Shown one piece after another: positions 1 to 47,733 of a DNA stretch of 49,968 bases. Positions within the stretch are counted from its first letter, which is position 1. Each line of letters opens with the position of its first letter. The notes under the pieces were generated by a model. It had not been told where the DNA came from, ran no database searches, and was given only the letters and a program-made list of their open reading frames with translations. The position numbers were made by a program, and so were the translations under genes. This stretch comes from Bacteroidia bacterium (GTDB taxonomy: Bacteria; Bacteroidota; Bacteroidia; NS11-12g; UBA955), in assembly GCA_020853295.1 (NCBI GenBank), contig JADYZD010000234.1, forward strand, positions 1 to 49,968. Direction: 5' to 3'.

Positions 1-3000
1 TTAAGTCAATACAAACAAAAAGTTTCGATTCAAAAATCCATTGTAAAAACAGCATTATGTCGCTTGCAAGACAACCGCCCATTGTGCGAAGATTTTTATA
101 AATTAAAAGCATTAAAGGTAGAAAAAATTGCAGTATGCGGAGATATTGTACTCGATGGGTTGGCCGATACCACTGAAGTTGCGGCAGCCATTTATTACAA
201 TATAGCCAATTTTTTATCGCCAAAAGTATATTTCTATAGCCTAGAAGAAATGCAGGCCAAAAATGCAGCAGGCGAAAACCGTTTATTAAGCAATGACGAA
301 ATCTTTAACGGGCCAGCTTTGCAACATGGATTTGTAGATGATGCCGAACTTGACAACTCAGACCAAGCCTGTAGTATAAAAGCCAGTGACCTTATCCAGC
401 TGATTATGGATACAGAGGTAAATGGTACCAAACCAGTTAAAGCAGTTCGCGGATTGCAATTGGCCAATTTTCCGGAAGACAACGATGATAGTATTTCTGA
501 AAAAATAGTAAAGTGGTGCTTGGAATTGGCTATTGATAAGTTTTATGTTCCCCGATTGTCAGTAGAAAAATCAAACTTTACTTTTTATAAAGAGAATTTG
601 CCTTTTTCAGTAGATACGGATGAAGTAAATGCACAGATTGATGAACTTATTGCCCAAGAACGCAAACGTTACCCCATCAATCCAGTATTGGACATATCTA
701 TTCCTCAGGGCTCTTGGAGAGAGGTAACCGACTTCACTTCTATACAAGAAGATTTACCGATGACATATGGGGTAGGCAGTGCTGGAATTCCCAACTTGCC
801 TAGTGATTATGAAGCACGCACGGAAAGAATTGCAGAGGCTGCACAACTCAAAGAATTCTTGAGTTTTTTCGATCAATTGTTTTACAATTATCTACAACAA
901 TTGGACGGAATGAAATCGCTATTTAGTTTGAATGAAGGCACAAACGAATGGGGCGATTTATTGATGAATAAAACCTATTTCACCAAGCCGTTGGTGGGTA
1001 AACGTGCAAATGAATTTAATGCAGATCCTGCAGATGATGAATCTGATGATGTGATGAATATTTTTGTTCAACCTGATATTGTACCAGATGCATCTTCATT
1101 GGAGATTTTTACATCAAAATATGATTCATTGGACCATAAAATTGCCAACATTGCCGAAACAGAGGAATCCTTTGTAATGCGCAAAAATCGGTTTTTGGAC
1201 CACCTTTTGGCTAGATTTTGTGAACAATTTTCTGATTATGCACTGCTGCAATACAGCATGGATGGTGCCAAAGCAGGAAAAGAACTCATTAGTGATAAAC
1301 TGGCTTTTTTAAATGCCTATCCCCGCATCAGTGCATTCCGGGGTACTGCATTTAATTATACCAAAGCCTTGCCTTGGCATATTCAAAATGCATCAGGTTT
1401 TGAAGACCGCTGTGCGCTTTTGATGGGTATGGATACAGTAAGCCCACAAAAATTGCTTTTTTCTAAGAATTTTAAAATCACAGAAACTGCTGGGAAATGG
1501 GATTTTTTACTTCAAATTACCAGCAAACTTTTGGTCAATATTGAGGCATTGGATTCAAAAATTGACTTGTTACAATTGATAGAAAATGTAGTAGCAGCAG
1601 GTGTACTATCTTCTAATTATTCATTAAAATCCACTGCACCTGGCAAATACAAAGTGCTTTTAAATAGTGTTAATTGTAAATTTAATCCTATTGCCCAAAG
1701 CTTTAAAACCGACCTTACCTTAATTCAAGCCAAGGATGTAATTGCTAAAAGCATCAAAGGTTTAAAAGCAGAATTAATTGAACAATTTACCGCGAATCGA
1801 AAAAATTTAACACCGCCTTTGTTTGATTATTTTAAAATAGTCAACCATACAGTGGATGCAACCACTACCCCACATTTGCACACAATTGAATATATCCTTT
1901 ACGACCGTCCAACCTACCTCACAGGAGAGATTCAATTGCTCACAGGTACTATAGAAGGTGCTGAAATTGAAGGAAAAAATGCAGAAGATACCAAATTAAT
2001 TACTGCATATAATCTTTTATGGAAAGTGGTACGTTATGCTTCCGATGCTGATTGTTATCGCTTCAATCCGGCTACTGCCATAAATTATCCAGCATCATAC
2101 CACTTTGAAATATTTGATGAATACGACAATGTTCTGGGTAGTGATAAGAAACACAATTACAATTATCAACTTTCTCAGATTATCAAAAATGCAATTGCAC
2201 CATCAATAACTGTTGAAAATTCCGTCACAAATAGCGGCAATTACACAGTAAACAATGCCGTTGCAGATGGGCCTTATATTCGGATTCATGTTAACGAAAC
2301 CATACCGTCTATTGCGGCTGATGGAAATGCAATTTTCAAACACAAATTGCAATGCACTGTAGATGCGGATAAACGCAAATTAACCATTACTGGCCTAGAT
2401 TTATCAGCTGCTTTAAGAACTGGTGATTCAATAAATATTTATAACGGATCCGAATATGTTCAAACTGTTGAAATACGCAAAATATATTTTAATTCCAATA
2501 CAGTAATAATTAGCAATGAGGCCATAGAAAAAAACACATCCGCCAATATTTCATATGAGAAATCTTTTGAAATCAAACAGATTTCTGGCCATATATTTAT
2601 TGTAAAAGGGGGTATGGAATTGTTGGCTATTGCAGATATGGTCGATTTCATGCAAGAAAAGTTTATTCAAAAAGAAGGCATTCATTTAATTGAGCATGTG
2701 TTATTGCGCCCAAAAGTGATTCACCAAGATGCTTTTTTTAATATTAAAACCGACGATGACTGTGAGGATTGCAAAATATCCGATGTATACAGCTTTACCA
2801 TGTCGGTAGTACTACCCTATTGGCCCGATCGCTTTTTGGACCTTAATTTTAGGGCGATGATAGAAAAAACTATTCGCCGAGAAGCACCTGCACATTTGGC
2901 ATTAAATATTTGCTGGGTAAGTCCAATACAAATGATGCAATTTGAAACTGCTTATAAAGAGTGGCTCATTGCTATTAATACCTTTAAAGAGGACTCTGCA

Positions 3001-3147
3001 GAAAGAATTAGTGCATTGGCCAATTTCATAGATATTATTAAGAAACTACGCACTGTATACCCATCTGGCCGACTGCATGATTGCAAAGAAAATGAAATCA
3101 CAAAAAATCCTGTAATATTAAATCTAACCCAACTAGGCACCTTTTAA
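1..3147 (+). CDS. eCIS baseplate-class structural protein, 5'-truncated by the window edge (position equivalent to Afp11/gp6-like)
   Basis: Frame 1 is open from nt 1, with no stop before the TTG at 64 used by the ORF track, so the gene begins upstream of the window. More than 1040 aa are visible and the stop is at 3145-3147. An 11-nt gap separates it from the next large same-strand ORF, and tape-measure and AAA+ ATPase genes follow. Function is assigned from size and synteny only. Confidence 0.5.
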   Translation, partial: LSQYKQKVSIQKSIVKTALCRLQDNRPLCEDFYKLKALKVEKIAVCGDIVLDGLADTTEVAAAIYYNIANFLSPKVYFYSLEEMQAKNAAGENRLLSNDEIFNGPALQHGFVDDAELDNSDQACSIKASDLIQLIMDTEVNGTKPVKAVRGLQLANFPEDNDDSISEKIVKWCLELAIDKFYVPRLSVEKSNFTFYKENLPFSVDTDEVNAQIDELIAQERKRYPINPVLDISIPQGSWREVTDFTSIQEDLPMTYGVGSAGIPNLPSDYEARTERIAEAAQLKEFLSFFDQLFYNYLQQLDGMKSLFSLNEGTNEWGDLLMNKTYFTKPLVGKRANEFNADPADDESDDVMNIFVQPDIVPDASSLEIFTSKYDSLDHKIANIAETEESFVMRKNRFLDHLLARFCEQFSDYALLQYSMDGAKAGKELISDKLAFLNAYPRISAFRGTAFNYTKALPWHIQNASGFEDRCALLMGMDTVSPQKLLFSKNFKITETAGKWDFLLQITSKLLVNIEALDSKIDLLQLIENVVAAGVLSSNYSLKSTAPGKYKVLLNSVNCKFNPIAQSFKTDLTLIQAKDVIAKSIKGLKAELIEQFTANRKNLTPPLFDYFKIVNHTVDATTTPHLHTIEYILYDRPTYLTGEIQLLTGTIEGAEIEGKNAEDTKLITAYNLLWKVVRYASDADCYRFNPATAINYPASYHFEIFDEYDNVLGSDKKHNYNYQLSQIIKNAIAPSITVENSVTNSGNYTVNNAVADGPYIRIHVNETIPSIAADGNAIFKHKLQCTVDADKRKLTITGLDLSAALRTGDSINIYNGSEYVQTVEIRKIYFNSNTVIISNEAIEKNTSANISYEKSFEIKQISGHIFIVKGGMELLAIADMVDFMQEKFIQKEGIHLIEHVLLRPKVIHQDAFFNIKTDDDCEDCKISDVYSFTMSVVLPYWPDRFLDLNFRAMIEKTIRREAPAHLALNICWVSPIQMMQFETAYKEWLIAINTFKEDSAERISALANFIDIIKKLRTVYPSGRLHDCKENEITKNPVILNLTQLGTF

Positions 3148-3158
3148 ACAACTAAAAA

Positions 3159-6100
3159 ATGGAAATTATCAATACACTTCCGGTATTTGAAAACAGCCAG
3201 GTATTAACCGCCTCGCAGCTCAATTCCATGCGCGATTACTTGCAGCAACAAAACAACATCACACGTGTTGGCCTAATTGGGCGCGGCATAGTTTGCGGAC
3301 TAGAGGCCACAAAAATTGGCAACACTTATAAAATAAGCGCCGGCATTGGGGTTTCTTCCTGGGGCTTTTTATTTTGTGTAGATGATTGTGAATTAACCCA
3401 TTTTAAAGAATATAAAATTCCCGACAATACCGATTATTTTCCCTTTCAGGATGATACTGGGAAACAGAATACTCCCTTATGGGAACTGCTTCCTTCCTCA
3501 GCCAATGGCAATACTGGTGTTTCATCACTGAGTGATTTTGATGGAAATTTAAACGAATATGTAGTGTTGTTGTATATGGAAGAATACAACAAAGATTTAC
3601 AAAGTTGCCTGGGTAAAAGTTGCGATGAATTGGGCATAGACCGTACCTATACTATCCGCAAATTGCTCATTAAAAAAACCGATTTAGACCTAGTAAATGC
3701 AGAAACGAATAACAAAGGGGGGTATTTATACGAGGGCTTATTTGATGCCAAAGAATTGCATTTAATGCAGCCCATATTAAATGCACAAACCAGCAGTAAT
3801 TATCACATGCTGGTAATTGCATACCTTACACCTGTTGCCATTATTACCAAGCCCTTATTTGAAAATCTGGATATTATTTACCAAGCCATTTATCCGATAC
3901 TCAAAAATAAATTCCCCAATTCTCCCATTTCTGATTTGTACAATTTATGGAATGATACATTAATACAATATACCGAAAAATTCATGTCGGGTGAAGCTAT
4001 TGGTTTTCAATATTTATACGACCGTGCTGCCGATGCTGTAAAATCACTCAATGAACTTGCCTGTGCTGCCATGCACCTAAACAGCCAGTGCAAATTTAAT
4101 TCTAATGCATTTCCCATGCATTTAATGTTGGGCAAAATCTCCTGTCCTCCAGATAAATACCGCCAAGAATTTGTGTATTCACCATTATTTAATGAACAAA
4201 AAGACTGGACACAAAAGGTGGTAAAACTATTTACAAGAACAGCTGAAATTATTGCCAACTTCATTGGGCAAGATGATTCTTTAGGAAAAGAATTTGGTAT
4301 TGCTGCAACACCCAGTATGGAAAAATGGCAAAATCTAGGTAAGAGCTCAATTCCTTTCTACTACAAACCAGAAACCATGGATGAAAATTGGGATGAGAAT
4401 AAATGCGGCGTGTGTTATACCAAAGGCAATAGCATCCTCTCCTATTACAAACAAAAAGAAGGTGGGAGCAACATAGGTTTTGAAACCACTCCGTGGTACT
4501 TCAACACCCAGAAATACAATTTTATTCGAATTGAGGGCCAACAAGGATTTGAAGTTGGTTTAGCAATTGAAAAATTGAAAGGAATTGCCAAAAGATTTAA
4601 TATTCCCTTTTCATCCAGTTATGCATTTTTAGGTCAATCTACCCCAAAAGGAAAATACGGAGATAATGACTGCTGTTATCCTGATTTGGATGTAAAATAT
4701 TTGCCTTGGCGGAATAAATTTTTATTTTATGTGCGCAACATTTTAAACACAACCAAACAGCTGGAAACCGTATTTGAAAATTTCTCTACTGCCTTTGGCA
4801 GCACCCAAAAAGCAAATTCCTATTACTATGCACCAGAGGCAGCAGCTGCGGCTCCTAATGCTTCTGATGGCAATGTGGTAATGGAAAAAGCAGCATACAA
4901 CAATAGCGATAGTGGAATGCTCAAAGGTTTTGATAAAGTGATGTTTAACATGGCAGCATTTCAGGAAAACTTTGAATTAGCGAGTGCCAAAAATGTAAAT
5001 ATTTCACCGAAAAACAAAAGCAAAATAATCAAATCAAAAGTATCCGCTTCTACTGCGGGCAGCAAAGCATCTACTGATAGTCCATTGGAAACTTTATTGG
5101 GCTGGATTACCGATTTTAACGACTGCCTAGAAGGCATGGAAAAGGTTTTGCCTACAAGCTTTTGTAGGTATGACCATACTGCATTTACAGAACAATACAA
5201 ATGCACAATGAACAAATGGATTGCGCTTATCAAACTCTTTAGGGATATGATCAATAGACAGCGTGACCCTGCTATGGTTCAAAATTTAGTAAACCTAGTA
5301 TTGTTGTACAAAGGAATTGCATTTTTTAAAGATGTACTTTTCATTGATATAGATACTATTGCTGAAATGAAAGCACGTCGTTTACAACAAGTTGAAAAAA
5401 CAAAGATATTCAGCAATGTCGTTCGAAAAAACCCAGGAATAGAACACTTGGCCGGTGTATATCGCAACGACCAGCTAGTGTTGTTAACCTATACCCCACC
5501 GCTAAAAGAAACAAAAAAAGATATTGATGTATCATTATTGGAAATGCTCAAAAAATCAGCTGACAAAAATGAAACCACAGAGAAATTCGTAGATATTGTT
5601 TTACAATATATAAAAGAATTTGATTCCAAAAATTTGTCAAAATTAGAAGGCAGGGTAATTGCTGATTTTGCCATTCACAATGATTATTGTTGTGAATGTG
5701 AAGCCGACGTTGACTCATATAGTGAACTTGCGCCCCAAGCATTTCCTAAAGCATATGCCATAAATCTTGAACAGGGCAAAGAGGTATTTAGCACCATTTT
5801 TAAACCCGTAAACGTATTTTACCACCCAGAAAGATACCATATTGCAGTTAACTCTAGAGCCAATTATTCAGAGGCCGAAGTCATCACCCAAGATTACCAG
5901 CCTATAGACGGACTTGAAAGGGAAATAGTTAAATACACCGTTAGCCAAGAAGATTTAAACAAAAGTCCAAACAACCGCACCAAACTGATATTATTTGATG
6001 AAATCGAATACGAAATTCAAGACAGAGAAAATGATTTTGAAGTATTAGATTCAGGTATCATTAATGTATTTTTATACCGAAATAAAGTGGCTGAATTGCC

Positions 6101-6365
6101 GACTTTTAGTGCAAATGGCCGCTTGGTTTCAGATAAGAAAGATCCAATTACTTTTTATGCCATTTCGCTTCAAGACGCGAAAACTGGCGATAATATTTCT
6201 GAAACTACCATTCAGAGTGCACAGGGCATTTTTACCATCCCTGATTTGGAGCCTGGAGATTATACAGTTAGTTTTTCCGTTCCAGGATTCAACAACATGG
6301 ATGTGCCCCTTTCCATTAAAGATCAAGATGAAGACATGGGCGATATCGTATTTAGACGCGGTTAA
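3159..6365 (+). CDS. eCIS baseplate/periphery structural protein (Afp12/gp7-like position) with a C-terminal carboxypeptidase-regulatory-like beta-sandwich
   Basis: ATG at 3159, 1068 aa. The stop TAA overlaps the next ATG (TAATG at 6363-6367). The last ~85 aa (nt ~6105-6362, ...GIFTIPDLEPGDYTVSFSVPGFNNMDVPLSIKDQDEDMGDIVF) match the CarboxypepD_reg-like pattern. The rest is assigned by synteny. Confidence 0.5.
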   Translation: MEIINTLPVFENSQVLTASQLNSMRDYLQQQNNITRVGLIGRGIVCGLEATKIGNTYKISAGIGVSSWGFLFCVDDCELTHFKEYKIPDNTDYFPFQDDTGKQNTPLWELLPSSANGNTGVSSLSDFDGNLNEYVVLLYMEEYNKDLQSCLGKSCDELGIDRTYTIRKLLIKKTDLDLVNAETNNKGGYLYEGLFDAKELHLMQPILNAQTSSNYHMLVIAYLTPVAIITKPLFENLDIIYQAIYPILKNKFPNSPISDLYNLWNDTLIQYTEKFMSGEAIGFQYLYDRAADAVKSLNELACAAMHLNSQCKFNSNAFPMHLMLGKISCPPDKYRQEFVYSPLFNEQKDWTQKVVKLFTRTAEIIANFIGQDDSLGKEFGIAATPSMEKWQNLGKSSIPFYYKPETMDENWDENKCGVCYTKGNSILSYYKQKEGGSNIGFETTPWYFNTQKYNFIRIEGQQGFEVGLAIEKLKGIAKRFNIPFSSSYAFLGQSTPKGKYGDNDCCYPDLDVKYLPWRNKFLFYVRNILNTTKQLETVFENFSTAFGSTQKANSYYYAPEAAAAAPNASDGNVVMEKAAYNNSDSGMLKGFDKVMFNMAAFQENFELASAKNVNISPKNKSKIIKSKVSASTAGSKASTDSPLETLLGWITDFNDCLEGMEKVLPTSFCRYDHTAFTEQYKCTMNKWIALIKLFRDMINRQRDPAMVQNLVNLVLLYKGIAFFKDVLFIDIDTIAEMKARRLQQVEKTKIFSNVVRKNPGIEHLAGVYRNDQLVLLTYTPPLKETKKDIDVSLLEMLKKSADKNETTEKFVDIVLQYIKEFDSKNLSKLEGRVIADFAIHNDYCCECEADVDSYSELAPQAFPKAYAINLEQGKEVFSTIFKPVNVFYHPERYHIAVNSRANYSEAEVITQDYQPIDGLEREIVKYTVSQEDLNKSPNNRTKLILFDEIEYEIQDRENDFEVLDSGIINVFLYRNKVAELPTFSANGRLVSDKKDPITFYAISLQDAKTGDNISETTIQSAQGIFTIPDLEPGDYTVSFSVPGFNNMDVPLSIKDQDEDMGDIVFRRG

Positions 6366-7927
6366 TGACTACCCACCACGTCCATAGCAGCAAATTCAAC
6401 ATATCTGTTGTCGACACGGCACAGGCCCTTCAAGCACGTCAAAAAATTAAAGAATTTGTGCAGTACGAACTGGAACCTATTTTCGAATCCGTTTTTGATA
6501 TCTTACCCGAAACCCAAACCCTACATATTCCCAAATTGGAAATAAACTTGGGAAATATTGATTTAAATAATCTCGAAAATATATTAAAAACAAAGCTCAA
6601 CGAGAAATTAATGGAATCCCTGCTGTTGCTTTTAAAACAACAAGCGGAATTGGGCGTTGCTGGGATGAATAAATCAGTATCCGATACCGAAATTTCTGTA
6701 CAAAACGGACGCAGCTTGTATGCCGATCCAAGTGGCAAAATAGTGGCAGATTCATTTGAAGGTTTTTCCGACCCCAACACCCTCCTTATCCATTATCTAG
6801 AGCATGGCCGTCTGCCTTGGTATACTTCTGAGGCAGGTATTGTAGCATTCAACAACCATATTGGCGAAATTAAAACCCAGTATTCAATATTTATTCAATA
6901 TTTGAATACATACTCCCCTGAAAGTGTTGAATACATGCGTATTTTGAACCTCATTAGCAACCGTACCTGGCTACAATGGCTACACTTTGAACCCACTGAA
7001 ATTGATGATTTTTTTGCGTTTTTCCGCACCCATTTTAATTCAATTGAAAAGTTTAAAATACAGGATTCCCAAAAAGTGATTCAAGAGCTGGAACAACGCA
7101 TACAGCGCATTACAAAGAATCTGATTTTGCAAAACAATCCCCCTCCAGTCATCCGAACCTGGAAAGATTTTTTTACTCATATTTCAACGCAAAAATCTGC
7201 AGAATTTCAGCAAATAGAAAAATCAATTCATCTTCTATCTGCCATAAACTTTAGCAGCGAAATCCACAATAATAAATGGGTGGAAGCCTTGATAGAACTA
7301 ACAAAAATTAAAAAAGCAAAAACTTCTCCAAAGGACACCGAAGTCAACACCACCAAAGCCCAAGAAAACACTGTTCCACCCGATAAAAAAGCATTTAAAG
7401 CACCTAAATATAGACAAGAAAACGAGTCGTTCTTGATAGACGATGCGGGTATTATTTTGCTATGGCCATTCTTGAGCCAGCTGTTTGCTCACCTGCTTTG
7501 GTTCAACAAAGAGACAGGTGAATTTACAGATGAAAATGCGCAAAATAAAGCTAGTGTATTTTTGCATTATTTGGCAAACAATACGCTGCCTGAAACTGAA
7601 AACAAATTGGTTCTTTGCAAAATAATTTGCGGAATTGATATTGATGCGCCGTTAAACTTGGATTATACTTTCAATGCAGAAGAAATCGAAACTGGCAACG
7701 AATTGCTCACTGCGGCAGCAAAGCATTGGACTGCATTGAGAACTGAATCGGCAGAAGCCTTGCAAAATGAGTTCTTTTTTCGCAAGGGAATATTAAAATT
7801 CACAGACCCCAATTGGTCTTTAACCATAGAACGAAAAAGTATTGATATACTTATTGACCGGCTCCCTTGGAGCATTTCAAATATTAAATTGCCATGGAAC
7901 TCGTATATACTAAACACAACCTGGTAG
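6365..7927 (+). CDS. contractile injection system tape-measure protein (Afp14/Pvc14-like)
   Basis: 520 aa. The N-terminus carries ...LHIPKLEINLGNIDL (family pattern LELDLG-I). The C-terminus carries DDAGIILLWPFLSQLF... and ...LIDRLPWSISNIKLPWNSYILNTTW, resembling the conserved AG-LLL-PFL and LPW...LPW blocks I recall for this family. It sits immediately upstream of, and overlaps by 34 nt, the AAA+ ATPase, as in Afp/PVC loci. Confidence 0.6.
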   Translation: MTTHHVHSSKFNISVVDTAQALQARQKIKEFVQYELEPIFESVFDILPETQTLHIPKLEINLGNIDLNNLENILKTKLNEKLMESLLLLLKQQAELGVAGMNKSVSDTEISVQNGRSLYADPSGKIVADSFEGFSDPNTLLIHYLEHGRLPWYTSEAGIVAFNNHIGEIKTQYSIFIQYLNTYSPESVEYMRILNLISNRTWLQWLHFEPTEIDDFFAFFRTHFNSIEKFKIQDSQKVIQELEQRIQRITKNLILQNNPPPVIRTWKDFFTHISTQKSAEFQQIEKSIHLLSAINFSSEIHNNKWVEALIELTKIKKAKTSPKDTEVNTTKAQENTVPPDKKAFKAPKYRQENESFLIDDAGIILLWPFLSQLFAHLLWFNKETGEFTDENAQNKASVFLHYLANNTLPETENKLVLCKIICGIDIDAPLNLDYTFNAEEIETGNELLTAAAKHWTALRTESAEALQNEFFFRKGILKFTDPNWSLTIERKSIDILIDRLPWSISNIKLPWNSYILNTTW

Positions 7928-9276
7928 AACAAAATTTGCTTTCTACGAATGCAGATGACATTTCAAATGAATTGGATTGGTTTGAATCTGTGCTACAGAT
8001 GCGTTCGGCAATCAATGCTGGAAGCGCGTCTCCCAATGCCAATATTTTCACACTTACGCCACCAGATTTATCAAAAAGAAAATCTTCTTTTGCCCAATTT
8101 ATTAAAGAACATGACCTAAAATTCGAAGACCGTTTTCTTTTGTTTATGTCTATGGTACCGCAGATAAAGCCTGAGTGTTTGGACATTTTTCTCGTACAAA
8201 ATCAACGAACAGGTCAGATTTACACCGAATTCGGAGGCCGCCGTGGCAAAATATTCAATGGTTTTTTACCCACAGCAGAAACATTTTTATTTGTACTTGC
8301 TGGTGGAAATTTGCAAAAACGATTTGAATTATTGCAAATTTTTGATGCGCGGCATCCACTTTTTTCATTAAATATTTTGGATGCTGATGTACCCGAACCC
8401 GGCGATCCTATTACCAGTTTGCCCTTACAAATAAACAAAAATTGGTTTGAATTATTTACCACAGGTGAAGAATCTACGCCAAGATTTAACAATGAATTTC
8501 CAGCACAAAAATTATCTACTTTATTGCAGTGGGAAGATTTGATATTGCCCTCACAAACCAGCGAACAACTCAACCAAATAGAAACTTGGTTACAACACCA
8601 TACAGTATTGATGGAGGAATGGGGCATGCGCGGTCGGTTAAAACCAGGATTCAGGGCACTTTTTCATGGCTTACCTGGCACAGGTAAATCATTGGCAGCT
8701 ACATTACTGGGAAACCGTTTTGGGAAATCGGTTTACCGCATAGATTTATCAAAAGTAGTTTCGAAATACATAGGTGAAACCGAAAAAAACCTAGCCAAAG
8801 TTTTTGACCGTGCTGAAAACCGCGGTTGGATTCTATTTTTTGATGAGGCCGATGCCCTGTTTGGAAAACGCACCCAGGTTTCGAGTTCAAATGACAAATA
8901 CGCCAACCAAGAAACTTCGTTTCTATTGCAACGGGTTGAGGATTATAACGGGCTTGTAATTCTGGCCTCCAACTTTAAACACAATATGGATGACGCATTT
9001 ATAAGGCGTTTTCAAAGCGTTGTTGATTTTTCATTACCAGGACCAGCAGAACGATTGTTAATTTGGGAAAAAGGCTTTTCAGAAAAAGCAGTTTTAGAAG
9101 ACAAAATGGATTTAAAAGAGATTGCAGTGAGACATGAAATCAGTGGTGGGGTAATTATGAATGTAATCCAATACAGTTCATTACAGGCCCTGAAACGTGG
9201 GGATGGAATTATTCGAAACCGCGACATTATTAATGGAATTAAGTTTGAACTGCGTAAAAGTGGCAGAACCTTGTGA
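7894..9276 (+). CDS. eCIS AAA+ ATPase (Afp15/Pvc15-like assembly or payload-loading ATPase)
   Basis: 460 aa. Walker A GLPGTGKS is at nt 8668-8691 and Walker B ILFFDE at 8830-8847, followed by ADALFGKR. There is a single C-terminal AAA+ module plus an N-terminal non-ATPase region. Its position between tape measure and payload supports the call. Confidence 0.8.
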   Translation: MELVYTKHNLVEQNLLSTNADDISNELDWFESVLQMRSAINAGSASPNANIFTLTPPDLSKRKSSFAQFIKEHDLKFEDRFLLFMSMVPQIKPECLDIFLVQNQRTGQIYTEFGGRRGKIFNGFLPTAETFLFVLAGGNLQKRFELLQIFDARHPLFSLNILDADVPEPGDPITSLPLQINKNWFELFTTGEESTPRFNNEFPAQKLSTLLQWEDLILPSQTSEQLNQIETWLQHHTVLMEEWGMRGRLKPGFRALFHGLPGTGKSLAATLLGNRFGKSVYRIDLSKVVSKYIGETEKNLAKVFDRAENRGWILFFDEADALFGKRTQVSSSNDKYANQETSFLLQRVEDYNGLVILASNFKHNMDDAFIRRFQSVVDFSLPGPAERLLIWEKGFSEKAVLEDKMDLKEIAVRHEISGGVIMNVIQYSSLQALKRGDGIIRNRDIINGIKFELRKSGRTL

Positions 9277-9350
9277 GTAAAAATATGAGGTAAAAATAAA
9301 ATCTATTGATTTAATTTGATAAAAGCGAATCTATAAACTGACACAACCAT

Positions 9351-12300
9351 TTGACCCCCGTTAAAACCAATAACGCCGATTCCAAATCTCAATCCTTGAG
9401 AATACAGCCCAAACTCACAGTTGGGGCTGCCAATTCGCCCGAGGAAAAGGAAGCAGATATGGTGGCCGAAAAGGTAATGCGCATGCCTTCTTCGGCCGGT
9501 TTTGGGGGTATGGCGGGCAATCCCAATCAATTGGAGAATATGAAGGTGGGCGAATCGGGAGGAACAGGCGCTGCACAGCGACTGGCCAGGAAGGTTCACA
9601 AACCCAAAATTGAGAGAAAATGTGCCAGTTGCGGGGGCAATCAAGAAAAAAGGCCTCAAATACAACGCAAAAGTCAAGAGGTAAAAATTCAGAAACAATG
9701 TGCCCGTTGCGCACAAGAAGAGAAAAAAATACAACGCATATCTTCTAAAAGCCCGCCGGCACAGGGAGACAAAAGTGAAAATACTCAAGATTCAAATGCA
9801 AATACTTCGGAAGGACATTCTGGAGGTGGCACTGTATTGACCGGTGCTATTCAGCGCAAATGTGAATCCTGCGAGAATAAGAATAATGACACCCTAGGCC
9901 ACACTGAGAACACAAATATTTTAGTACAGCGCACTAGCCATGCGGGCGCTGAAGAAAGCCAAGCATCTGCTGAAATTAGTGATGCTATTGTAAAAACCAA
10001 TGGTGGAGGGAAATCCTTACCTACCGCTATACATCAAGACTTAGGAAATAAAATTGGGGCTGATTTTTCTCAAGTAAAAATACATGAGGGAAGTGATGCA
10101 GCTCAGCTCAGCAATAAATTAGGTGCCAGGGCTTTTACCACTGGCAATAATATTTACTTTAACACCGGAGAATACAATCCAGAATCCGCAACAGGCAAGC
10201 AATTACTGGCCCATGAACTTACCCATGTTGTGCAGCAAGGTGCCGCCGGACCTTCGGTACAGCGCAAATCAGATGAAACCATCATCCAACGGAATGCATT
10301 TACCAATGCTGCTTCAGCAGTATGGGACCATACAGGAGGTGCATTGGTCAACGCAGGAGAATCGGCAATTGAAACAGGTGTAGAGCTTGCTGGCGATGCC
10401 ACTGAATGGGCAGGTGAACAAATGGAATCTGTCGTTAATTCTCTAGCTCCTGGACTCTTAGAATTTTTGAGGGGGGATATCATTGAAAACGTACGCCAAA
10501 AAATTATCACTGGTGTAGATTCTATAACCGGTGGATTGTTTAGCGCAATTGAGACACAGGGATTTGCTGAGGTGATTGGTGATTTGCTTAGTGCTGGCTT
10601 TAGCTCAGCTACAGGTGCTATGGCAGAGAACTGTGCAGCCATTGCCAATGCAGCCCGCAAACTTTGGGATTTTATAAAAACATTAACTGGCCCTGCATTG
10701 CAAAGATTTAGGGCTTTCTTAAGCAATATTAGCAATTTCCTTTCTGGTATCTGGAATGATTATGCACTGCCTGCCTGGGATGCCATTAAGAAATTCGCTG
10801 GTGATGCCTGGGACTGGGTTGTTGAAAAGGCAAACTGGTTATGGGATCTTACTGCCCCAATCCGCAATACAGCAGAAAGAGCCTGGAACTGGATAAAAGA
10901 GATGTTTGGGATTGCATGGGGCAGTGCCACATCTGCTTTTGATTGGTTAAAAGCCAAAGCTATAGCAGCCTGGAATCGCGTAAATGCCCTAATTCAGCCC
11001 TATTTAGGCCCTCTAAAAGTAATTGCCGCTATACTGGTATTGCTTAGCCCTGCTGGCCCGTTTGTGGTAGCATATGTGGCACTGCCGCATGTTTGGAATG
11101 CCATTAAATGGGTGGCTGAGAATTTTAATACACATGTAATTTTAAGGGTCAAACAATTCTTCCACGACGAGGTGTTGCCTATACTTCAAAGTGGGATGAA
11201 TATGGTAAGTGGTATGATTAACTCTGCCATCACTTGGCTCAGCAGTATCTTTACAATGCTGGGTGTCCAAATTACCCGGATGCTGGGTATGGTGCGGCAA
11301 CTTCGATTGTTCCAATTAATCAGTTCCGGGATTACCCGCATTTGCAATGGCATTCAAACTGGGGTAAGGTATGTTACCTTAACAGCAAATAACTTACGAA
11401 CTAAAGTTTCAACGTTTGTTACCAATGTATGGCGCAAACTGGCGCCCTTCCGTGAATTCCTAAGGCAGATTATATTATTGTCCACCATAGGTCCATATGC
11501 CATATTTGATGATGGTGTTTGGGGAAGCATTACCTATATCGTAAATCTGGCAGGGACGATTCCGTGCATTAAAGAAATTACGGAATTGCTCAATTTCCAA
11601 GGTTGGATTCGCCATATTGGAAATATGCGTACCCAATTATTTGATTTATGGCACCTGATTACCCATCCTGATTTAATCGAAGAAAGGGCTAGAAATTTCC
11701 TTGAACCTTTCATGCAAAATGTGGGCGGTGAATCAGAAACCCGACTTAGGGCAGCATTGGGTCGTTTTGGTATAACAAGTGCACGGCATATTGCAGGTAT
11801 TCTTAAATACCTCAATCAATCCATAGCCCATTTAATGGCAAATTGGTGGGAGGAAATAAAGAAAATGGTTTGGTTCCTTATTTGGCCATTTGGTGAAGGA
11901 AGTCCGTTATATGAAGATGGAGCAAAACTTTGGAATTTGGTACCTCAAATGTGGAATGACTTGTGGGCCGGCAATTTCAGAGGGGTTCGAGATGGTTTAT
12001 TAGAATGGTGGCAAGCAGCCAATATGGTGGTAGGCTTATTTGCTGGATGGGCTGCAATAGGTGGCGCACTAGTTGGCGCCATTCTAGGTGCCATTTTTGG
12101 AATGGGTGGCGGCGCAATTCCTGGTGCTGGGGCTGGCTTTGAGATTGGTGTTATGTTGGGAGAAGGTGTAATGGTTTCCATGCTTGCAGCTGAAACCAGT
12201 ATTATCGCAGTATCTATTTACGATCTAATAACGGTAAGTGGTGAAAGTCCAAGAGGTCCGCCACCTGCAGCAGAGGCCGCACCAGAAGCACCAGCAGAAA

Positions 12301-15300
12301 GACGCGTTGAAGGTGCAGGATCGAGTGGTGTAGCCCCGCCATTACATAGTGGCGATATACGAACAGAGGCAGATATTATTGAGTATGCATACCAGCGAAT
12401 TGCAAACAGTGCCATATCACTTGGTATTATGGGTGCATTGTTCCTTTTGGGTGCTATTGGAGGCGAAATTGCTGGTGCGCTATGCAGTGGCTTTAAGGCT
12501 GTGGGTGAAGCTTTGGCAGAAAGATTTCCAAATGTAGCCAGGGCTGTAGCAGAATTGGGCGAGTCTGTTAAAACCAGTCGATTGGGAGAAGCTGCTACTG
12601 AATTTGGAGAAGGTAGAACCAGTGTTCGAAATGCATGGGATGATTTTAGGGGTCGTGGACCTGAAAATCGTGGTCCACCAGGTGAAAGAACAACAGAATC
12701 GGAACGCCCACCAACAACGGAGCCTGAAACTACCCGTCCACCAGAAAGAACTGGCCCTGAGGGCGAAAGGCCGGGAGAAACCCGACCAGGTGGAGAACGC
12801 CCATCGGCACCGGATGGCAGTGCAGTAATGGATGAAGTGCGCTGTCCAAATGGTCACCGTGCATCAATAAGAGAAGATGGTCGAATCATAGTTTGCGCTT
12901 CTCCTTGTGAACCAATTAGGACCAAATATTCAGCTGAACTAGAGGCCAATCGTGCATTCGACAGATCAATATCGTCGTTGGAATCCCGCTTTGACGACCT
13001 ATCCAACCGCAGGGCAACAATGGAACCAGCGGAATACACCCGACAGTTGCAAGCACTAGAAGCGGAATTACGTGGAATGGAGGGCGCACTTTCAGACCTA
13101 AAATCTTTGCGTGAAACTACATCTATTGACCCTGCTGCGGTAAGGGAACCACCTTCACCAGGATCACCCGGTTCAGATGAACATCGCACTGCAAGGTGGA
13201 ATGAATATGTAGAACGAACCACAGAAGGAACTCGTTGGTCACCAGAACGTTGGGAAAACCAATACAGAATAAATATGGAACAAGCACGGAGAGGCAATGC
13301 CGCGGCCGATGCTTATTGGAGAGATGAAGTGGGCTGGGGCCGCCGAGAAGTATATCCAAGAGAAGATCCTTCCCGTCGTTTGGATATTGCCGACCCGACT
13401 TCTATACCACCAAGAGCTATAGAATATAAAACAGGTTATACTACAGCCAGTGTAGATATCATGTCAGAAGTTACTAGAGATGCTAACCTGGTTCGTCAGG
13501 GATGGGATATAACATGGGTATTTGAAGGAAAAGCCAGTGCACCTTTGCTTGATGCCTTAACAAGTAGAAATATTAAATTTAGTTTTAACCCACCAAGAAC
13601 CAGCGCACCTCCAATCACTCCTAAGCTCATTGTAGGCGGAGTAAACTCACCTGAAGAACGGGAAGCAGATGCTGTTGCAGAAAGGGTTGCCCGTATGCCT
13701 TCCGAAGGACTGGTGCAGCGCAAAGGTGGTGATGCAATGGCACGCAACCAAAACAGCAAATTACACCTCAGTAGAGGAGACAAAAGACTAAATACCAAAT
13801 GTGCTGATTGTGCAGCAGCTGAGAATAAAAATGAAGGAGATAGAAGCCAAAATACTTGTGCAAAATGCACTGGTGAAGCTGATAACAAATTAGGACAAGA
13901 AAAATTACAACAACCGGATTCTCTTGCCAATAAAATCCAGCGTTCACCCGCATCTCAAAAAGAAGAATCAACCGCATCGGATGAGGTGAGCCATAAAATA
14001 AAAAACAGCAGCAATGGTGGTTCTAATCTACCAGGCACAGTGGCAGCAGATTTTGGCGAAAAAATAGGAGCCGACTTTTCCAATGTGCGCATACATACCG
14101 ATAGCACTGCGGCCGATTTAAATAAACAACTCGGAGCCCGTGCGTTTGCCACTGGAAATAGCATTTATTTTAATAACGGGGAATACAATCCCAATTCTGG
14201 AGAGGGCAAAAAACTATTAGCTCATGAACTTACCCATGTTGTACAACAAGGCAATGCCAAAGAAAGTGTAAATCGCCAAGAAGCAGCTCCGGCTCGTGCT
14301 CCAACTACTGAGGAATTGGCACAGCGATTAATTGATAATCCGGGTGAATTATGCAGCTTGCTCAACCCACCTTCATCCGATTCCAACAATTGTACCGCAG
14401 TCGCTGCAGCTGTAGACAGTTATTTACATTCCGGTAGATTAGAAGCAGCGGTAACTGGAGATGGATTAACCGAATATCACTTTTCGGGTACTTTGGGCTC
14501 AGAGGTACATTTAAGAGGGGTAATTAATTCAGTACCACGTTCTGGAGATGTGAGGGTGATTATGGGTATGCGCACACCTGAGGATATTGCAGCATATGCT
14601 GAATCTCATAATGGATTTATGCTAACCAATCAACACTGGTTTGTTGCAGTAAGGGTGAGAAGAACAGTTTATTTTATAGATTGTGGCAGCCATAGAATTG
14701 CCACTTCCGAACTTTCACATTATGCCAATTATCAGCGTCTTTCTTCTTTCCGAATTTTATCTGGTTCATCTGCTGTAACCCCTGTAGATCCCATGGCTGG
14801 TCCTGGTTTTGATATCCCAGGAATAGACCGAAAACCTGCACCGGGAAAAACAGAAAATCCATTAGAAAAAGAAAATGAAAATGTACCACAAAATGCAATA
14901 AAACAACCCGCGGCCACTGCTCAAATCCAGCGAGCACCTGAGCCTGAACCAGCAACCCAAACATCCAGTGTAGCTATAGATTTTATTCCAACTTGCACGC
15001 GAAAATTAGACATTAGTGGTTTGTATTTATTCCCTTCTTCACAGGCCACTTTCCAACCAGGTTCAAAACAGGTACAACTGGTTCGGATATTTTTGAATAA
15101 TATTTTAGGTGAACAATATTCCGAGGATTTGGTTGAACCAATGAGTTCAATTATTCTCAATAAATCCTTTATAAAAAGTGGTCAGTTTGCCGAAAATGAT
15201 GACTCATATGAAGGTCAAAAAATTGATAATATTTTCATAGCAATTGAGCCTTTAGATACTATTTATAAAGAGCTTGAGAAAAGGAATATTCAACCCAATT

Positions 15301-18300
15301 TTACACCAGAAGAATACGACCAATTATTCGAAGCTTTTATGGCAAAAGAGTTTTGGTACGACTTCGTGCGTATGGCAAAACTCGAAGATTTCAAACTACC
15401 AAACTGGTTAAATAAAAACATTTTCGACTCCATTGTTGCATTAAAACCCGAAATACTAGGTGCATATATTCCGGCATATCAGCAGTTTTTACAGGATGCA
15501 ACAGAAAACAATAAAGCAGCCTTTATGGAAATGGTTCAAATGCTGTTTTATTCCATATTGGAAATTCTCATGGCCATGGAAGCCATTAGAAGTGATACCT
15601 CACTCAACACTATTGAATCTACAAAATTGGCTTACCAAAGCATATGGTATATGCCACAGGATAAACCAGAAATAACAGAACCACTTGGAGTGTACCACAC
15701 CAATGTATTTATTTCTTTTATCAAATTTGCAGCGAAATATCCTACAGAATTTAAAGATGCGGAAACCGCAAATGATGCTCGGATAAAACTGCTTACTGAA
15801 TTTCAGAAATCAGAGGACTTCAAAACCTCTAATCCTGCAATATTCCCCCCATTCCCTGCTTTTATGGTAATGGCTGGAATGACAAATGGTTTTGAAACCA
15901 TAAAATCCGCATCAGGTTTATTCAGAATGGTTGTGAATTCCGATTCAATGTTTGGTGCAGGAATTCATGGCGTAACCGTTGCTATGAAACGCGACATGCT
16001 CTACAGCTGGAAGGTATATCAAATGCCAGATTCGCTGAAAGCAATCACAAAATCAAATGGAAATGATTTTAATAAAACAATAAAAGAAACCGATACTTAT
16101 GTTAAAAATTCTGCCGCCAATTTAGGTACTCCAGTTAAAACGGCTTCTACCGGACAAACTGCAGAGTGGAATATGGGAATGGGTGGTTATGATTTGGGCA
16201 ATTATATCATTACCGGCACCGTTCAACCGATATATGAAGCAGACTTGAATTGGATGCAAGAACCGAGCATTGCCGGACATCCATTCTCTTTAGTTACACC
16301 TGAATTTATTGCCGATAAATATGTAAATCAGGAAGAAAATTCATTGGCCGAATTAGAGGAACAAAAGAAAAATGCAGAAGGCGAAGACCTTGAAGCCATT
16401 AATAAACAAATTGCCGATTTAAAAGAAAGACAATCTCTCAAATATTCCGACATTGCCAGCCGCGATATTAATGATACCACCAAATTATTAGACCAAGCAA
16501 CCCGATTAAAAAATTACCTGCAAAATGACGTAAAAGATGAACCTATAAAACCTGGTGAAAAATCCATCAATCCATTTGATGTAAGATTGTATCAATACAA
16601 TGCAGATTTATATAAACTGTTCTTAATGATCAGTGAAAATTATAACCTGCGAGTTATGACAAAAGTAGAGGCGGTAGAGAAATTTATTGCGGTAGTACAA
16701 TCACAATTAGATGAACTTACCCGCCTGTATAAACGCAGTGTAGACGCGGAAAGCCGATTCTTGCCGGGCTATGAACCTTCTAGAATAATTGCCGGCCTAG
16801 TAAATGAAGACGATGGCAACATGATTCCACTTTTACTCGAAGTAGGATTGCACCCCGATTCAGATCCGGAAATGGGTTATTACAAAATGAAAATTGTGGA
16901 TGTTTCGGTGGATTCTCCTAAAAAAGATTCAATGGTTTATGTAGGTGAATCTTATTTTGTAAAATCGGCGGTAAAAGGAAATGAGGCAGAAACATTGGGT
17001 TATTCAATGCTCGCTAATCATGCAAGTTCAGTAACTGAAGCCGAAACTGCAGGCATTAAAAGTGCCATGGCTAAATTTGGAGGATACAACCCATATGCCC
17101 TTGGATTCATTAAATACAAAGCCCCCAAATATGGAATTACAGATAGCGTTCAATCAATTACAACCAATTTCGAATATTTTGAAAAAATTGTAGCTGTTTT
17201 AGGCATTATTGTTTTAATAGCTGGAGTTGTGGCCAGCATGGGAACACTTACCCCAGCTGCCGCCGCTGTGGTTACAGGACTGGGTATTGCTGTAGGTGTG
17301 GCGGGGGCTGTTTTGGCCGGTATTAATATTGCTGACCGAGTCGAAAAGGGCACCTTCGAATGGGATTTTCAAACCGCCATAGATATTATTTCTATTGTGG
17401 GAGCCGTGGCTATGGTTGCGGGCTCGGTGCGTTCTATTTCCATTGCCCTTTCGGGTGCAAGTAAAGTTACCAAAATGATGCAAATGCAGAAATTGGCTAA
17501 AATTATGTATATCTACGATGTTGCTGATTTCACTACCAATTCCATATTAATTGCCGGTAAATTTTATGAAGATGTACGTGCAATTAAAGCCTTGAAATTG
17601 CCCAAAGACAAGGAAGATGAACTTATAGCCTCAGCAACTTATGAAGCCATGCAACAAGGTGCAATGATGTCGGTAGCCATGCATGGAATTGGCAAACAAG
17701 GTTTTGAATTTTATAAGGCAAAAGTAGAAAATACCAATTATCAATCCTGGATGGATAAAGGGTGGATTGAACATGGCGAAGATGGGGTTTATAAAGTATC
17801 GGCAAATGCCCCTCCTTTTATTCACGATGCCTTGGCGCAAAAAGGAATATCGGGTAATGGAAAGGCAATAGATGAATCTACTTTAGAAGGTTTATATGGC
17901 AGTGTTGCAAGCACCAAAAGTACAGATAATGAAAGCACACTCTCATATACAAACGGTGATCGCGTAATGGTATGTGCCACCAATTGCGAACCCATTCAAA
18001 GTAAATATGCCGATGTATTGGCTGCACACCCAGAGCTTGAAACCCGACTCACTGAAATAGAAAAACAATTAAAATTTGCATCTGAAAATAACAATGAAGA
18101 AATAAAAAATGAAGCACTTAGTGCGTTGCAACATTTAGAAGGTGAAATTAGAATCACAAAAGAAAAAAATACACCTAAAACTCCTGACACACCCGATACA
18201 CCAACTCCTGTATCAGACACCTCCCCTGCACCAGAACCCACTGCAGGCAAAGCAACTGACACAGCCCCTGTTCCCCCTGATAAATCAGCTACGACTGAGC

Positions 18301-38466: not shown

Positions 38467-38474
38467 TAACTTTG
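38467..38474 (+). promoter_or_regulatory. Bacteroidota -7 promoter box TAnnTTTG (TAACTTTG)
   Basis: Exact consensus 19 nt upstream of the ATG at 38493. The TTG used by the ORF track (38472) lies inside this box, which argues for the ATG start. Confidence 0.35.
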
Positions 38475-38492
38475 ACTTTCCTAAACTGCACC

Positions 38493-47065: not shown

Positions 47066-47669
47066 AAATCTGTTCATCAATATTGCACTCATATTTGTAG
47101 CATTATTCTTGTTTCTTTGGCTGGTTTTTATGGGTATGGGCATTTATACCCGCCACAACCAATCGGTTACAGTGCCCAATTTAAAGGGGGTAAAACTCGA
47201 TGATGCCATAGCCAAGTTGGAAGATGCCAATCTGAGGTACGAAATATTTGATTCTGTTTACAATGCAGATTTTAAAAAAGATGCCATAACAGAGCAAGAT
47301 CCAGAAAGTGGCAATTTGGTAAAACCCGGCAGAATCATTTACCTCTCGGTAAATAGTTTGGCCAAACCCAAAGTAAAAATGCCAAAACTGATTGACCAAA
47401 GTTTTGCTTTGAGCAAAGCGGTATTAAAAAGTGTGGGACTTGAATTGGGAGAAGTTACCTTTAAATACGATGAAATTGGAAACAATCTGGTAATGGAACA
47501 ATTGTACAATGGCAGCAGCATTCCTCCTGGCCGTCAAATAGAAAAAGGCTCTAAAATAGATTTGGTAGTGGCCACCAACCGCAGGGCTGGCGGAGAACCC
47601 ACAAGCGATTCTACTGACATACCAATGCCCATAGACGAGGCCGTTCCAAACGATGAAATCAATCCATAA
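47058..47669 (+). CDS. PASTA domain-containing membrane protein
   Basis: N-terminal TM segment, then two PASTA-like units (VTVPNLKGVKLDDAIAKLEDANLRYEI..., KVKMPKLIDQSFALSKAVLKSVGLELGEV...). It overlaps the ddl-like stop by 8 nt. Confidence 0.75.
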   Translation: MRKNLFINIALIFVALFLFLWLVFMGMGIYTRHNQSVTVPNLKGVKLDDAIAKLEDANLRYEIFDSVYNADFKKDAITEQDPESGNLVKPGRIIYLSVNSLAKPKVKMPKLIDQSFALSKAVLKSVGLELGEVTFKYDEIGNNLVMEQLYNGSSIPPGRQIEKGSKIDLVVATNRRAGGEPTSDSTDIPMPIDEAVPNDEINP

Positions 47670-47733
47670 TTTCAAAGATTCTTTACAATTGGCAAACAAT
47701 AATTTCCTTTTAAAACTGTTAGCATTTTCACAC

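Follow-up and report, generated by a model that had tools for sequence, protein, structure and literature searches.

The window analysed here, a contig of 49,968 bp from a metagenome-assembled Bacteroidia bacterium, carries a giant open reading frame (ORF) whose product reads as two cargo effectors of an extracellular contractile injection system (eCIS) joined end to end [Table 1]. Each half (half A, residues 1-1413; half B, residues 1423-3418) begins with its own leader, a CxxC-containing linker and a copy of the zincin domain eCIS_core (Pfam PF13699, formerly DUF4157), and each ends in a predicted nuclease. We regard it as probable that the ORF is one real gene and encodes a tandem eCIS cargo of two modules, in which two effectors of the type represented by Tme from Streptomyces davawensis have been fused, with the two halves most likely being separated by the zincin modules. 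The single DUF4157/Tme-type effector has already been described; what is new here is its tandem multi-module form.

How cargo is selected, loaded and released by eCIS is still being worked out, and the particles are being engineered for protein delivery. The giant ORF offers a natural case in which two complete effectors either share one loading event or are separated beforehand. Its 375-kDa product, roughly three times as large as the biggest cargo for which loading is demonstrated in the literature found, is a test case for the capacity of the tube, for the use of an internal leader and for a role as a processing protease of DUF4157, to which the publications consulted assign no established function. 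Since the multi-module class to which it belongs spans several phyla (see below), a result obtained here would generalise.

The two copies of the N-terminal module extend over residues 16-300 and 1423-1638. That this block recurs, as an initial annotation of the sequence had proposed, is borne out by self-BLAST, which aligns residues 18-306 with residues 1422-1643 at 38% identity (E 1e-46). The profile search that had been named beforehand as the check on DUF4157 finds eCIS_core at both positions (residues 223-298, E 1e-29, and residues 1560-1635, E 7.5e-30), each match reaching ~103 bits relative to a cut-off of 22 bits. The zinc-binding motif HELTHVVQQ, which is of the HExxHxxQ type, is located at residues 288 and 1625, and its H, E, H and Q are invariant in an alignment of 40 sequences. 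Both eCIS_core domains may have zinc-dependent peptidase activity. Upstream of the cores, CxxC pairs are present at residues 91, 117 and 171 in module 1 and at residues 1484 and 1503 in module 2, and linker 1 gives a weak match to DnaJ_CXXCXGXG. In the leader motif, Q-x-K-L-x-V-G...E-x-E-A-D-x-x-A, the E, A, D and A residues are invariant in the family alignment. The AlphaFold2 (AF2) model of leader 2 consists of a strand and a helix with a predicted local distance difference test score (pLDDT) of 84-95, and that of core 2 has a pLDDT of 93-98. A Foldseek search of the PDB with the AF2 model of residues 1405-1830, which is good for the leader and core only, returned nothing below E 0.98, and when the module alignment was used as a profile against the PDB, no structure of a relative was found.

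The module regions are also marked by a short sequence motif. Eight copies of [ILVM]QR[KTINS] are found in the protein, relative to 0.38 expected, and all of them are inside the two module regions; besides those in the linkers [Table 1], two lie right after core 1, at residues 303 and 312. In the window, the motifs of the looser form [ILVM]Q[RK]x lie within positions 9660-10295 and 13713-13940. Across 443 cores, this looser form shows an 8-9 fold enrichment immediately on either side of the core, with 0.44 (before) and 0.39 (after) copies per core in the adjoining 10-residue bins versus a background of 0.049. Each leader likewise starts with a motif of this kind, I/V-Q-x-K-L. The [ILVM]Q[RK]x motifs around the cores are candidate recognition or cleavage sites.

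As first noted, the ORF runs for 10,257 nt without a stop; the 3418 codons begin at a TTG start, which is called identically in two further assemblies. The Logan assembly of run SRR26425193 (L010), which derives from another sample, carries the same ORF and differs from the window gene by 58 substitutions (40 synonymous and 16 non-synonymous codons) and zero indels. An orthologue of 3470 residues (P0015; locus L001, GCA_044224315.1) can be aligned from end to end and is 80% identical, with 0.125 non-synonymous substitutions per site (dN), 1.59 synonymous substitutions per site (dS; synonymous sites are saturated) and a dN/dS of about 0.08. The frame is thus intact in three independent assemblies, i.e., the window, L010 and L001, and the maintenance of an open frame of >10 kb at this dS is explicable by selection alone. 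Judged from codon substitutions, the whole length of the ORF is under purifying selection, and the internal leader and core (dN/dS 0.09 and 0.06) are as strongly constrained as the remaining protein. Because it is under selection, the internal module can be taken as functional and not as a relic. A recent duplication of the module was considered and is excluded by the absence of DNA-level repeats between the two modules, the identity of which is merely 38% at the protein level.

At the junction between the halves, the absence of both stop and ATG that had been pointed out at the outset is confirmed. On its 5′ side, the closest start codon in frame is a TTG at residue 1399, which lies within the preceding domain; on its 3′ side, it is an ATG at residue 1449. 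As no start codon lies between them, an internal start would remove leader 2. In the orthologue P0015, a 9-residue (27-nt) in-frame insertion is located exactly at the junction, where the protein also diverges most (dN 0.44). Moreover, homologues of the half A toxin domain, namely the small proteins P0134 and P0135 and a Rhs homologue in locus L015, stop exactly at the end of this domain, and leader 2 starts ~9 residues on. The two A-toxin homologues of known context each have an adjacent immunity-like gene. With A-toxin homologues ending at the junction and the frame being kept in three assemblies, the view that two complete effectors are fused in frame stands, and the comparisons support an origin of the ORF by end-to-end fusion of two Tme-type DUF4157-led effectors.

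A survey of split versus fused versions had been suggested. In loci L005-L008, an AAA gene is followed by a DUF4157 gene for 488-590 residues and then by a separate DUF4157 effector of 2042-2173 residues; two separate DUF4157 genes thus occupy the position of the giant ORF in these related loci, in support of the fusion reading. No close relative with halves A and B split was found in a genome scan with the ATPase, which returned the orthologue and three distant loci of different layout, or in a metagenome scan with the junction region, which returned three distant partial matches. In L008, a gene for 1116 residues without a family match (4650-8000) abuts the gene for the 2173-residue DUF4157 effector (8001-14522) with no gap; this boundary is possibly another fusion or fission point, or a split introduced by gene calling.

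Table 1 Features of the giant cargo ORF and its neighbours in the window (aa, residues of the giant protein unless a gene length is given).
Feature	Position	Strand	Basis and remarks
CIS (contractile injection system) tape-measure protein gene, 520 aa	6365..7927	+	Pfam CIS_TMP PF19268, E 5e-87
AAA+ ATPase gene, 460 aa, Afp15/Pvc15/Alg15-type position	7894..9276	+	Pfam AAA PF00004, E 2e-24
Giant cargo ORF, 3418 aa, 374.7 kDa	9351..19607	+	TTG start, no in-frame stop
Leader 1 (aa 16-48), LRIQPKLTVGAANSPEEKEADMVAEKVMRMP	9396..9494	+	Family motif Q-x-K-L-x-V-G...E-x-E-A-D-x-x-A; dN/dS 0.17
Linker 1 (aa 49-215)	9495..9995	+	Low complexity, three CxxC pairs, four [ILVM]QR[KTINS] motifs
eCIS_core / DUF4157 zincin core 1 (aa 216-300), HELTHVVQQ	9996..10250	+	PF13699 E 1e-29; dN/dS 0.03
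Tape-measure-like Trp-rich helical region (aa 316-696)	10296..11438	+	PHROG tail length tape measure families
Gly/Ala-rich hydrophobic hairpins (aa 890-1049)	12018..12497	+	Hydropathy scan; weak DUF6861 match aa 875-944
His/Cys knuckle + coiled-coil "pre-toxin" unit 1 (aa 1165-1245)	12843..13085	+	Weakly Ntox1-like
Half A toxin domain (aa 1270-1413), PD-(D/E)xK-like, LDIAD...AIEYK	13158..13589	+	Homologues, AF2, Foldseek
Junction (aa 1414-1422, PPRTSAPPI; ...NIKFSFNPPRTSAPPITPKLIVGG)	13590..13616	+	Neither stop nor start codon
Leader 2 (aa 1423-1452), TPKLIVGGVNSPEEREADAVAERVARMP	13617..13706	+	Self-BLAST; dN/dS 0.09
Linker 2 (aa 1453-1553)	13707..14009	+	Two CxxC pairs with VQRK and IQRS motifs; disorder predicted
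eCIS_core / DUF4157 zincin core 2 (aa 1554-1638), HELTHVVQQ	14010..14264	+	PF13699 E 7.5e-30; dN/dS 0.06
Domain of ~190 aa after core 2 (aa 1639-1830)	14265..14840	+	Conserved NNC...HWF...DCGSH residues
Large conserved region (aa 1848-2600)	14892..17150	+	30-33% identity to P0016, P0018, P0021, P0026; dN/dS 0.09
Hydrophobic hairpins (aa 2606-2701)	17166..17453	+	Hydropathy scan; dN/dS 0.02
His/Cys + coiled-coil unit 2 (aa 2863-2934)	17937..18152	+	Self-BLAST vs unit 1 33%, E 8e-7; jackhmmer
His/Cys + coiled-coil unit 3 (aa 3028-3116), into long helical stretch	18432..18698	+	jackhmmer
C-terminal DNA/RNA non-specific endonuclease (aa 3223-3327), DDAGHLIAN	19017..19331	+	Endonuclea_NS_2 PF13930, E 1e-14
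YbjN / type III secretion system (T3SS)-chaperone-like gene, 147 aa	19654..20097	+	Weak Pfam TY-Chap1, 5.8e-4; NCBI "YbjN domain-containing protein"

The initial annotation implied that such a protein would be a rarity, an expectation that the family survey overturned. For this survey, a core hidden Markov model (HMM) was built from the matches, and a leader HMM was used to establish the order of leaders and cores. Of the 121 proteins with eCIS_core in a list of the best 120 homologues and the query, 105 have at least two cores and 25 have three. An exhaustive HMMER search with module 2 matched 62,290 representative clusters at E ≤ 0.001, and among the best 150 of these, all 122 new proteins carry two to four cores. 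The samples thus hold at least 227 distinct clusters with 2-4 cores, counts that are to be read as a floor and not as a frequency, because score-ranked lists favour multi-copy proteins. The order leader-core-leader-core, which is that of the giant ORF, recurs in 63 sampled proteins, and leader-core-core in 58; according to the leader HMM, cores without a detectable leader also exist. The hosts include Roseofilum, Limnospira, Planktothrix, Microcoleus, Crocinitomix, Niastella, Mucilaginibacter, Desulfobulbaceae and Accumulibacter. Based on this domain order, the giant ORF belongs to a widespread multi-module class that is found in several phyla and groups (Bacteroidota, filamentous and bloom-forming cyanobacteria, Desulfobulbaceae and Accumulibacter). 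The earlier remark that a polyprotein of this kind has not been described may hold for the searchable literature, in which no publication on multi-module DUF4157 polyproteins was found, but it does not hold for the databases. The C-terminal nuclease module, the middle region of half B and the hairpin region of half A each recur in single-module effectors, a distribution that suggests a shuffling of parts as in polymorphic toxins.

In half A, the region that follows core 1 matches 10 PHROG families annotated as tail length tape measure (E ≤ 0.001), the best being phrog_1272 (6.5e-14), phrog_1535 (1.1e-11) and phrog_4200 (2.6e-9), and homologous regions are found in P0028, P0047, P0054, P0061 and P0099. 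A hydropathy scan of the whole protein identified hydrophobic segments at residues 546-580, 890-958, 1017-1049 and 2606-2701, and the half A hairpins are 96-98% identical to those of the orthologue. A Pro-rich stretch (residues 1091-1171) leads into the first of three copies of a unit of ~75 residues (H...G-R-I/V-x-C-x-x-x-C and then a coiled coil), which were detected with jackhmmer. Pfam Ntox1 (PF15500) matches unit 1 at E 2e-4 with 21.9 bits, i.e., below its 25-bit cut-off. The His/Cys unit is also present in P0017-P0026, mostly ahead of a C-terminal toxin. Given this position and its three copies in one protein, we read it as a pre-toxin unit rather than as a toxin. Part of the "Ntox1" family may accordingly represent an adaptor ahead of the toxin instead of a toxin proper.

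The relatives of the half A toxin domain are few, namely P0134, P0135 and the C terminus of the Rhs toxin in L015. P0135 is located in an array of orphan toxin cassettes (L002), comprising a deaminase and its partner, P0135 and a gene for 145 residues, and AHH and Imm11. In L015, the Rhs protein that ends in the half-A-type toxin domain is followed by an ORF of 155 residues, which is 31% identical (E 5e-16) to the 145-residue gene product of L002. These carriers and the related small ORFs paired with them mark the half A toxin domain as a genuine C-terminal domain of the polymorphic-toxin kind that has a cognate immunity family. The domain has no Pfam match. The motif LDIAD...AIE[YH]K is kept in every homologue, and for the AF2 model (pLDDT 71) the top Foldseek matches are PD-(D/E)xK nucleases, i.e., MspJI, SfsA, EndoMS (probability 0.96, the highest value), Can2 and Card1. 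All of these matches are weak (E 0.013 or higher), and the motif and the model point only tentatively to a PD-(D/E)xK nuclease.

In half B, core 2 is followed by a domain of ~190 residues for which no match was found in Pfam, PHROG, NCBIfam or the PDB. A word-indexed search gave no homologues, and a local jackhmmer search gave the orthologue only; the AF2 model over this domain is poor. A papain-like fold, suggested by the conserved NNC...HWF...DCGSH residues, was considered and set aside as a guess without support. The large conserved region that comes next had no family match in Pfam, PHROG and NCBIfam searches, and no tape-measure-like region was detected in half B with PHROG. Beyond the hairpins, the Pro-rich stretch of half B sits between His/Cys units 2 and 3, and the terminal module (residues 2977-3413) is 48-51% identical to those of P0017, P0019, P0020 and P0022. 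The Endonuclea_NS_2 match near the C terminus scores 55 bits versus a 27-bit cut-off. In a single-sequence search of the PDB, the sole match was EssD (8guo), a nuclease toxin of the type VII secretion system (E 7e-5), and DDAGHLIAN of half B aligns with DDGGHLIAR (D-x-G-H) in the EssD active site. By homology, half B ends in an EssD/EndA-type nuclease. It had been proposed that the two copies are followed by the same order of parts, which is broadly the case; half B differs in its extra ~190-residue domain after the core and in having the His/Cys motif twice. Of the three or more toxin domains envisaged, two nuclease-type domains were recovered and a third was not confirmed.

The DUF4157 domain has been named PVC-metallopeptidase, with a proposed role in autoproteolytic release, and in that study a second domain copy was noted solely at the extreme C terminus and read as a toxin (Zhang et al. 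2012; PMC3482391). It was later described as the eCIS core domain, with linkers of >1000 residues being noted (Geller et al. 2021). The toxins with a PVC-metallopeptidase resemble the giant protein in their constant N-terminal HExxH domain, their variable C-terminal toxins and the frequent lack of immunity genes, and share with it the predicted autoproteolytic release and a second copy of the domain in one protein. Unlike in these toxins, the second copy here is accompanied by a leader and a linker and stands at the head of another 1,780 residues of cargo.

The closest published counterpart of each half is Tme (BN159_7576, 2247 residues, S. davawensis), in which DUF4157 is combined with predicted transmembrane helices, a region resembling tape-measure proteins and an EndA-like nuclease (PMC11126660). 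The likeness is drawn from the published description of Tme. Half A shares with Tme the N-terminal DUF4157 in a long ORF, the predicted transmembrane helices and the tape-measure-like region, and half B shares the C-terminal DNA/RNA non-specific nuclease with a D-x-G-H motif; coiled coils and a location in a CIS cluster are further features common to Tme and the giant ORF. Unlike Tme, the giant ORF has two effectors in one chain, with a second, internal leader and DUF4157 module. In addition, its half A toxin is PD-(D/E)xK-like and not EndA-like, and half B is without a detected tape-measure region.

In AlgoCIS, Cgo1 (498 residues) and Cgo2 (1228 residues) fill the lumen of the tube (Xu et al. 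2022, PMC8894135; 2026 preprint, 10.64898/2026.05.27.728243). Loading requires a disordered N-terminal region and has the AAA+ protein Alg15 as its mediator, and the role of Alg15/Pvc15 homologues in loading has been published (10.64898/2026.05.27.728243). As in the giant ORF, Cgo1 and Cgo2 combine an N-terminal region and DUF4157 with a variable C terminus, belong to an eCIS of Bacteroidota and provide two DUF4157 units per locus. In contrast, cgo1 and cgo2 are separate genes whose products load independently, whereas the two units are covalently joined here in a product that is twice the combined size of Cgo1 and Cgo2.

Multifunctional autoprocessing repeats-in-toxin (MARTX) toxins are giant polypeptides with several effector domains that are freed in the target by an internal protease. 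They use type I secretion, and their cysteine protease domain is activated by inositol hexakisphosphate. For the giant protein, MARTX serves as a working analogy only, as Pfam matches to a cysteine protease or to RTX repeats are absent from it. To our knowledge, processing has been shown for no DUF4157 protein.

Taken together, these comparisons suggest the following sequence of events. By analogy with AlgoCIS and the Photorhabdus virulence cassettes (PVC), the N-terminal leader region would be recognised by the adjacent AAA+ ATPase, which would feed the largely unfolded 375-kDa chain into the lumen of the tube. Contraction would then expel the chain into the target, where the hydrophobic hairpins may act at the membrane and nucleic acids would be attacked by both nucleases. 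Either ahead of loading or following delivery, the zincin modules would separate the halves in cis at the conserved [ILVM]Q[RK]x / Q-x-K-L motifs that flank each module. As a rough estimate, a chain of 375 kDa at 1.21 cubic angstroms per Da occupies ~450 cubic nm, and a lumen 4 nm wide and 100 nm long offers ~1,250 cubic nm; on these rough figures, accommodation of the chain in the lumen is feasible by volume.

Several observations weigh against this reading, in particular against cleavage. The published data on Tme and Cgo1 give no support for processing by DUF4157. Tme (>220 kDa) is apparently full length on blots of the producer, and the toxicity of Cgo1 is independent of its HExxH motifs (PMC8894135). 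DUF4157 and the C-terminal domain are dispensable for loading in AlgoCIS (10.64898/2026.05.27.728243), and DUF4157 proteins of Streptomyces co-purify or co-elute with spike-complex proteins, suggesting contact with the spike. In the published literature searched, no cleaved substrate of any DUF4157 domain is reported. The largest cargo shown to load in any eCIS found has ~1,100-1,230 residues, a fraction of the 375-kDa chain. Moreover, no immunity gene for either nuclease is recognisable in the window or in the orthologous locus L001, and the assignment of the half A toxin as a PD-(D/E)xK nuclease is weak at the Foldseek E values given above. Finally, because the contig ends, the sheath, tube and baseplate genes are missing from the window, and the assignment to an eCIS is made from CIS_TMP, AAA and eCIS_core alone. 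The full-length Tme in the producer, the HExxH-independent toxicity of Cgo1, the dispensability of DUF4157 for loading and the co-elution with the spike complex would all suit a single giant toxin that is never cut and that is loaded and acts as one chain, as would the 58 leader-core-core proteins, in which extra cores occur without a leader of their own. The internal leader and core would then constitute an adaptor, contacting the spike, tube or AAA+ protein or aiding refolding, and not a protease. This explanation is possible, if on the doubtful side. It has to accommodate two intact HExxHxxQQ motifs under strong purifying selection, an internal leader that is conserved despite its non-N-terminal position, conserved motifs that bracket the cores and resemble recognition sites, and an A-toxin domain that is normally found at a free C terminus. 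From these sequence features, a maturation role in cis is the most likely one for the internal module.

The remaining explanations concern the nature of the gene and of its product. As the contig is metagenome-assembled and related loci have two separate DUF4157 genes, an artefact of assembly, sequencing or gene calling has to be considered, i.e., two genes joined by a lost stop or a frameshift, or a half B that is made from an internal start. We judge this to be extremely improbable, given that three assemblies from different samples keep the frame (the orthologue at dS 1.59), that the sole change at the junction is the in-frame 27-nt insertion, that an internal start would lose the leader for want of a start codon between residues 1399 and 1449, and that 63 other proteins have the order leader-core-leader-core. 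It is also conceivable that the product is not a cargo at all and instead sits in a membrane of the producer, where it would anchor the particle or regulate it, as in CIS types that are attached to a membrane, its nucleases acting in the producer, for example in lysis or DNA release. The several strongly hydrophobic and highly conserved segments would suit such a role, as would the outcome that no immunity genes were found in the window or in L001; in S. davawensis, Tme has been linked to extracellular DNA release from the producer itself (PMC11126660). We nevertheless consider it unlikely, since AlgoCIS and a haloarchaeal system provide demonstrated examples of DUF4157 proteins as cargo, and the A-toxin family is a polymorphic-toxin C-terminal domain that is paired with immunity genes elsewhere.

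Within the preferred reading, that of a fused cargo whose halves are separated by the zincin modules, a more speculative variant, to which we give rather little weight, is that the leader completes the active site of DUF4157. The module would then be a split, self-cleaving zincin, and the giants would be true polyproteins, cut into separate eCIS effectors at the [ILVM]Q[RK]x motifs on both sides of each module. In such an arrangement, the E-x-E-A-D-x-x-A helix would correspond to the glutamate helix of gluzincins, supplied from the N-terminal side of HExxH across the CxxC-rich linker, and the Q-x-K-L-x-V-G strand would lie in the substrate cleft. ExxxD is the glutamate-helix motif of gluzincins such as thermolysin and neprilysin. 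The proposal arises because the leader matches ExxxD and no conserved Glu follows HExxHxxQQ in 463 eCIS-type cores, whereas VgrG2b of Pseudomonas aeruginosa has one, its third zinc ligand being E983, ~44 residues after HExxH (PMC6899460). VgrG2b, the structure of which has been solved, likewise has an HExxH zincin core annotated as DUF4157; unlike the eCIS cores, VgrG2b is joined to a spike protein and is the toxin in its own right. The variant is consistent with the confident model of leader 2 (pLDDT 84-95) despite the ~90 disordered residues that precede the core, with the invariant acidic residues of the leader, the sole other conserved element of the module, with the 8-9 fold enrichment of the flanking motif and with the 63 leader-core-leader-core proteins. 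The leaderless cores, the full-length Tme and the dispensability of DUF4157 for loading argue against it.

The genes around the giant ORF are conserved. The order CIS_TMP, AAA and giant ORF is common to the window, L001 and L010, with the AAA+ ATPase gene directly 5′ of the giant ORF in all three; by analogy with its counterparts in other systems, the ATPase is the presumed cargo loader. In L001 the genes are arranged as a large gene, a gene for 1066 residues, CIS_TMP, AAA, the giant ORF and a gene for 147 residues. The two genes 5′ of the tape-measure gene in the window (64-3147 and 3159-6365, + strand) encode >1000 residues each and have no family match, with the exception of a C-terminal CarboxypepD_reg-like domain in the product of gene 3159-6365; they are probably baseplate or fibre components.

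Directly 3′ of the giant ORF, the YbjN-like gene is kept in the window, L001 and L010 and is absent 3′ of the related effectors in L005-L008. It was considered as an immunity partner of the nucleases and rejected. Its product is unrelated to the immunity-like proteins beside the A-toxin homologues and to the 145-aa gene of L005, and the gene is missing beside effectors that have the same C-terminal nuclease. Instead of conferring immunity, the YbjN-like protein may serve the giant, hydrophobic cargo as a chaperone. The A-toxin immunity family (L015, 1842-2309; L002, 6614-7051) has no homologue in the window or the orthologous locus. In L005, the half-A-like effector P0023 (DUF4157, DUF6861 and Ntox1) is followed by a PoNi-type immunity gene (16126-16866). 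This adjacency suggests that the C-terminal 170 residues of P0023 are a PoNe-like DNase and indicates that some relatives carry immunity genes, unlike the locus of the giant ORF.

Elsewhere in the window, positions 44375-47065 (+ strand) encode an 896-residue fused double Ddl with two D-Ala-D-Ala ligase units in tandem, in which Dala_Dala_lig_N occurs twice and the C-terminal domain is matched in four stretches. Three large genes (29168-32794, - strand; 38472-40766 and 47653-49659, + strand) end in type IX sorting domains (CHU_C, Por_Secre_tail), which is consistent with a host from the Bacteroidota and has no connection with the eCIS cargo.

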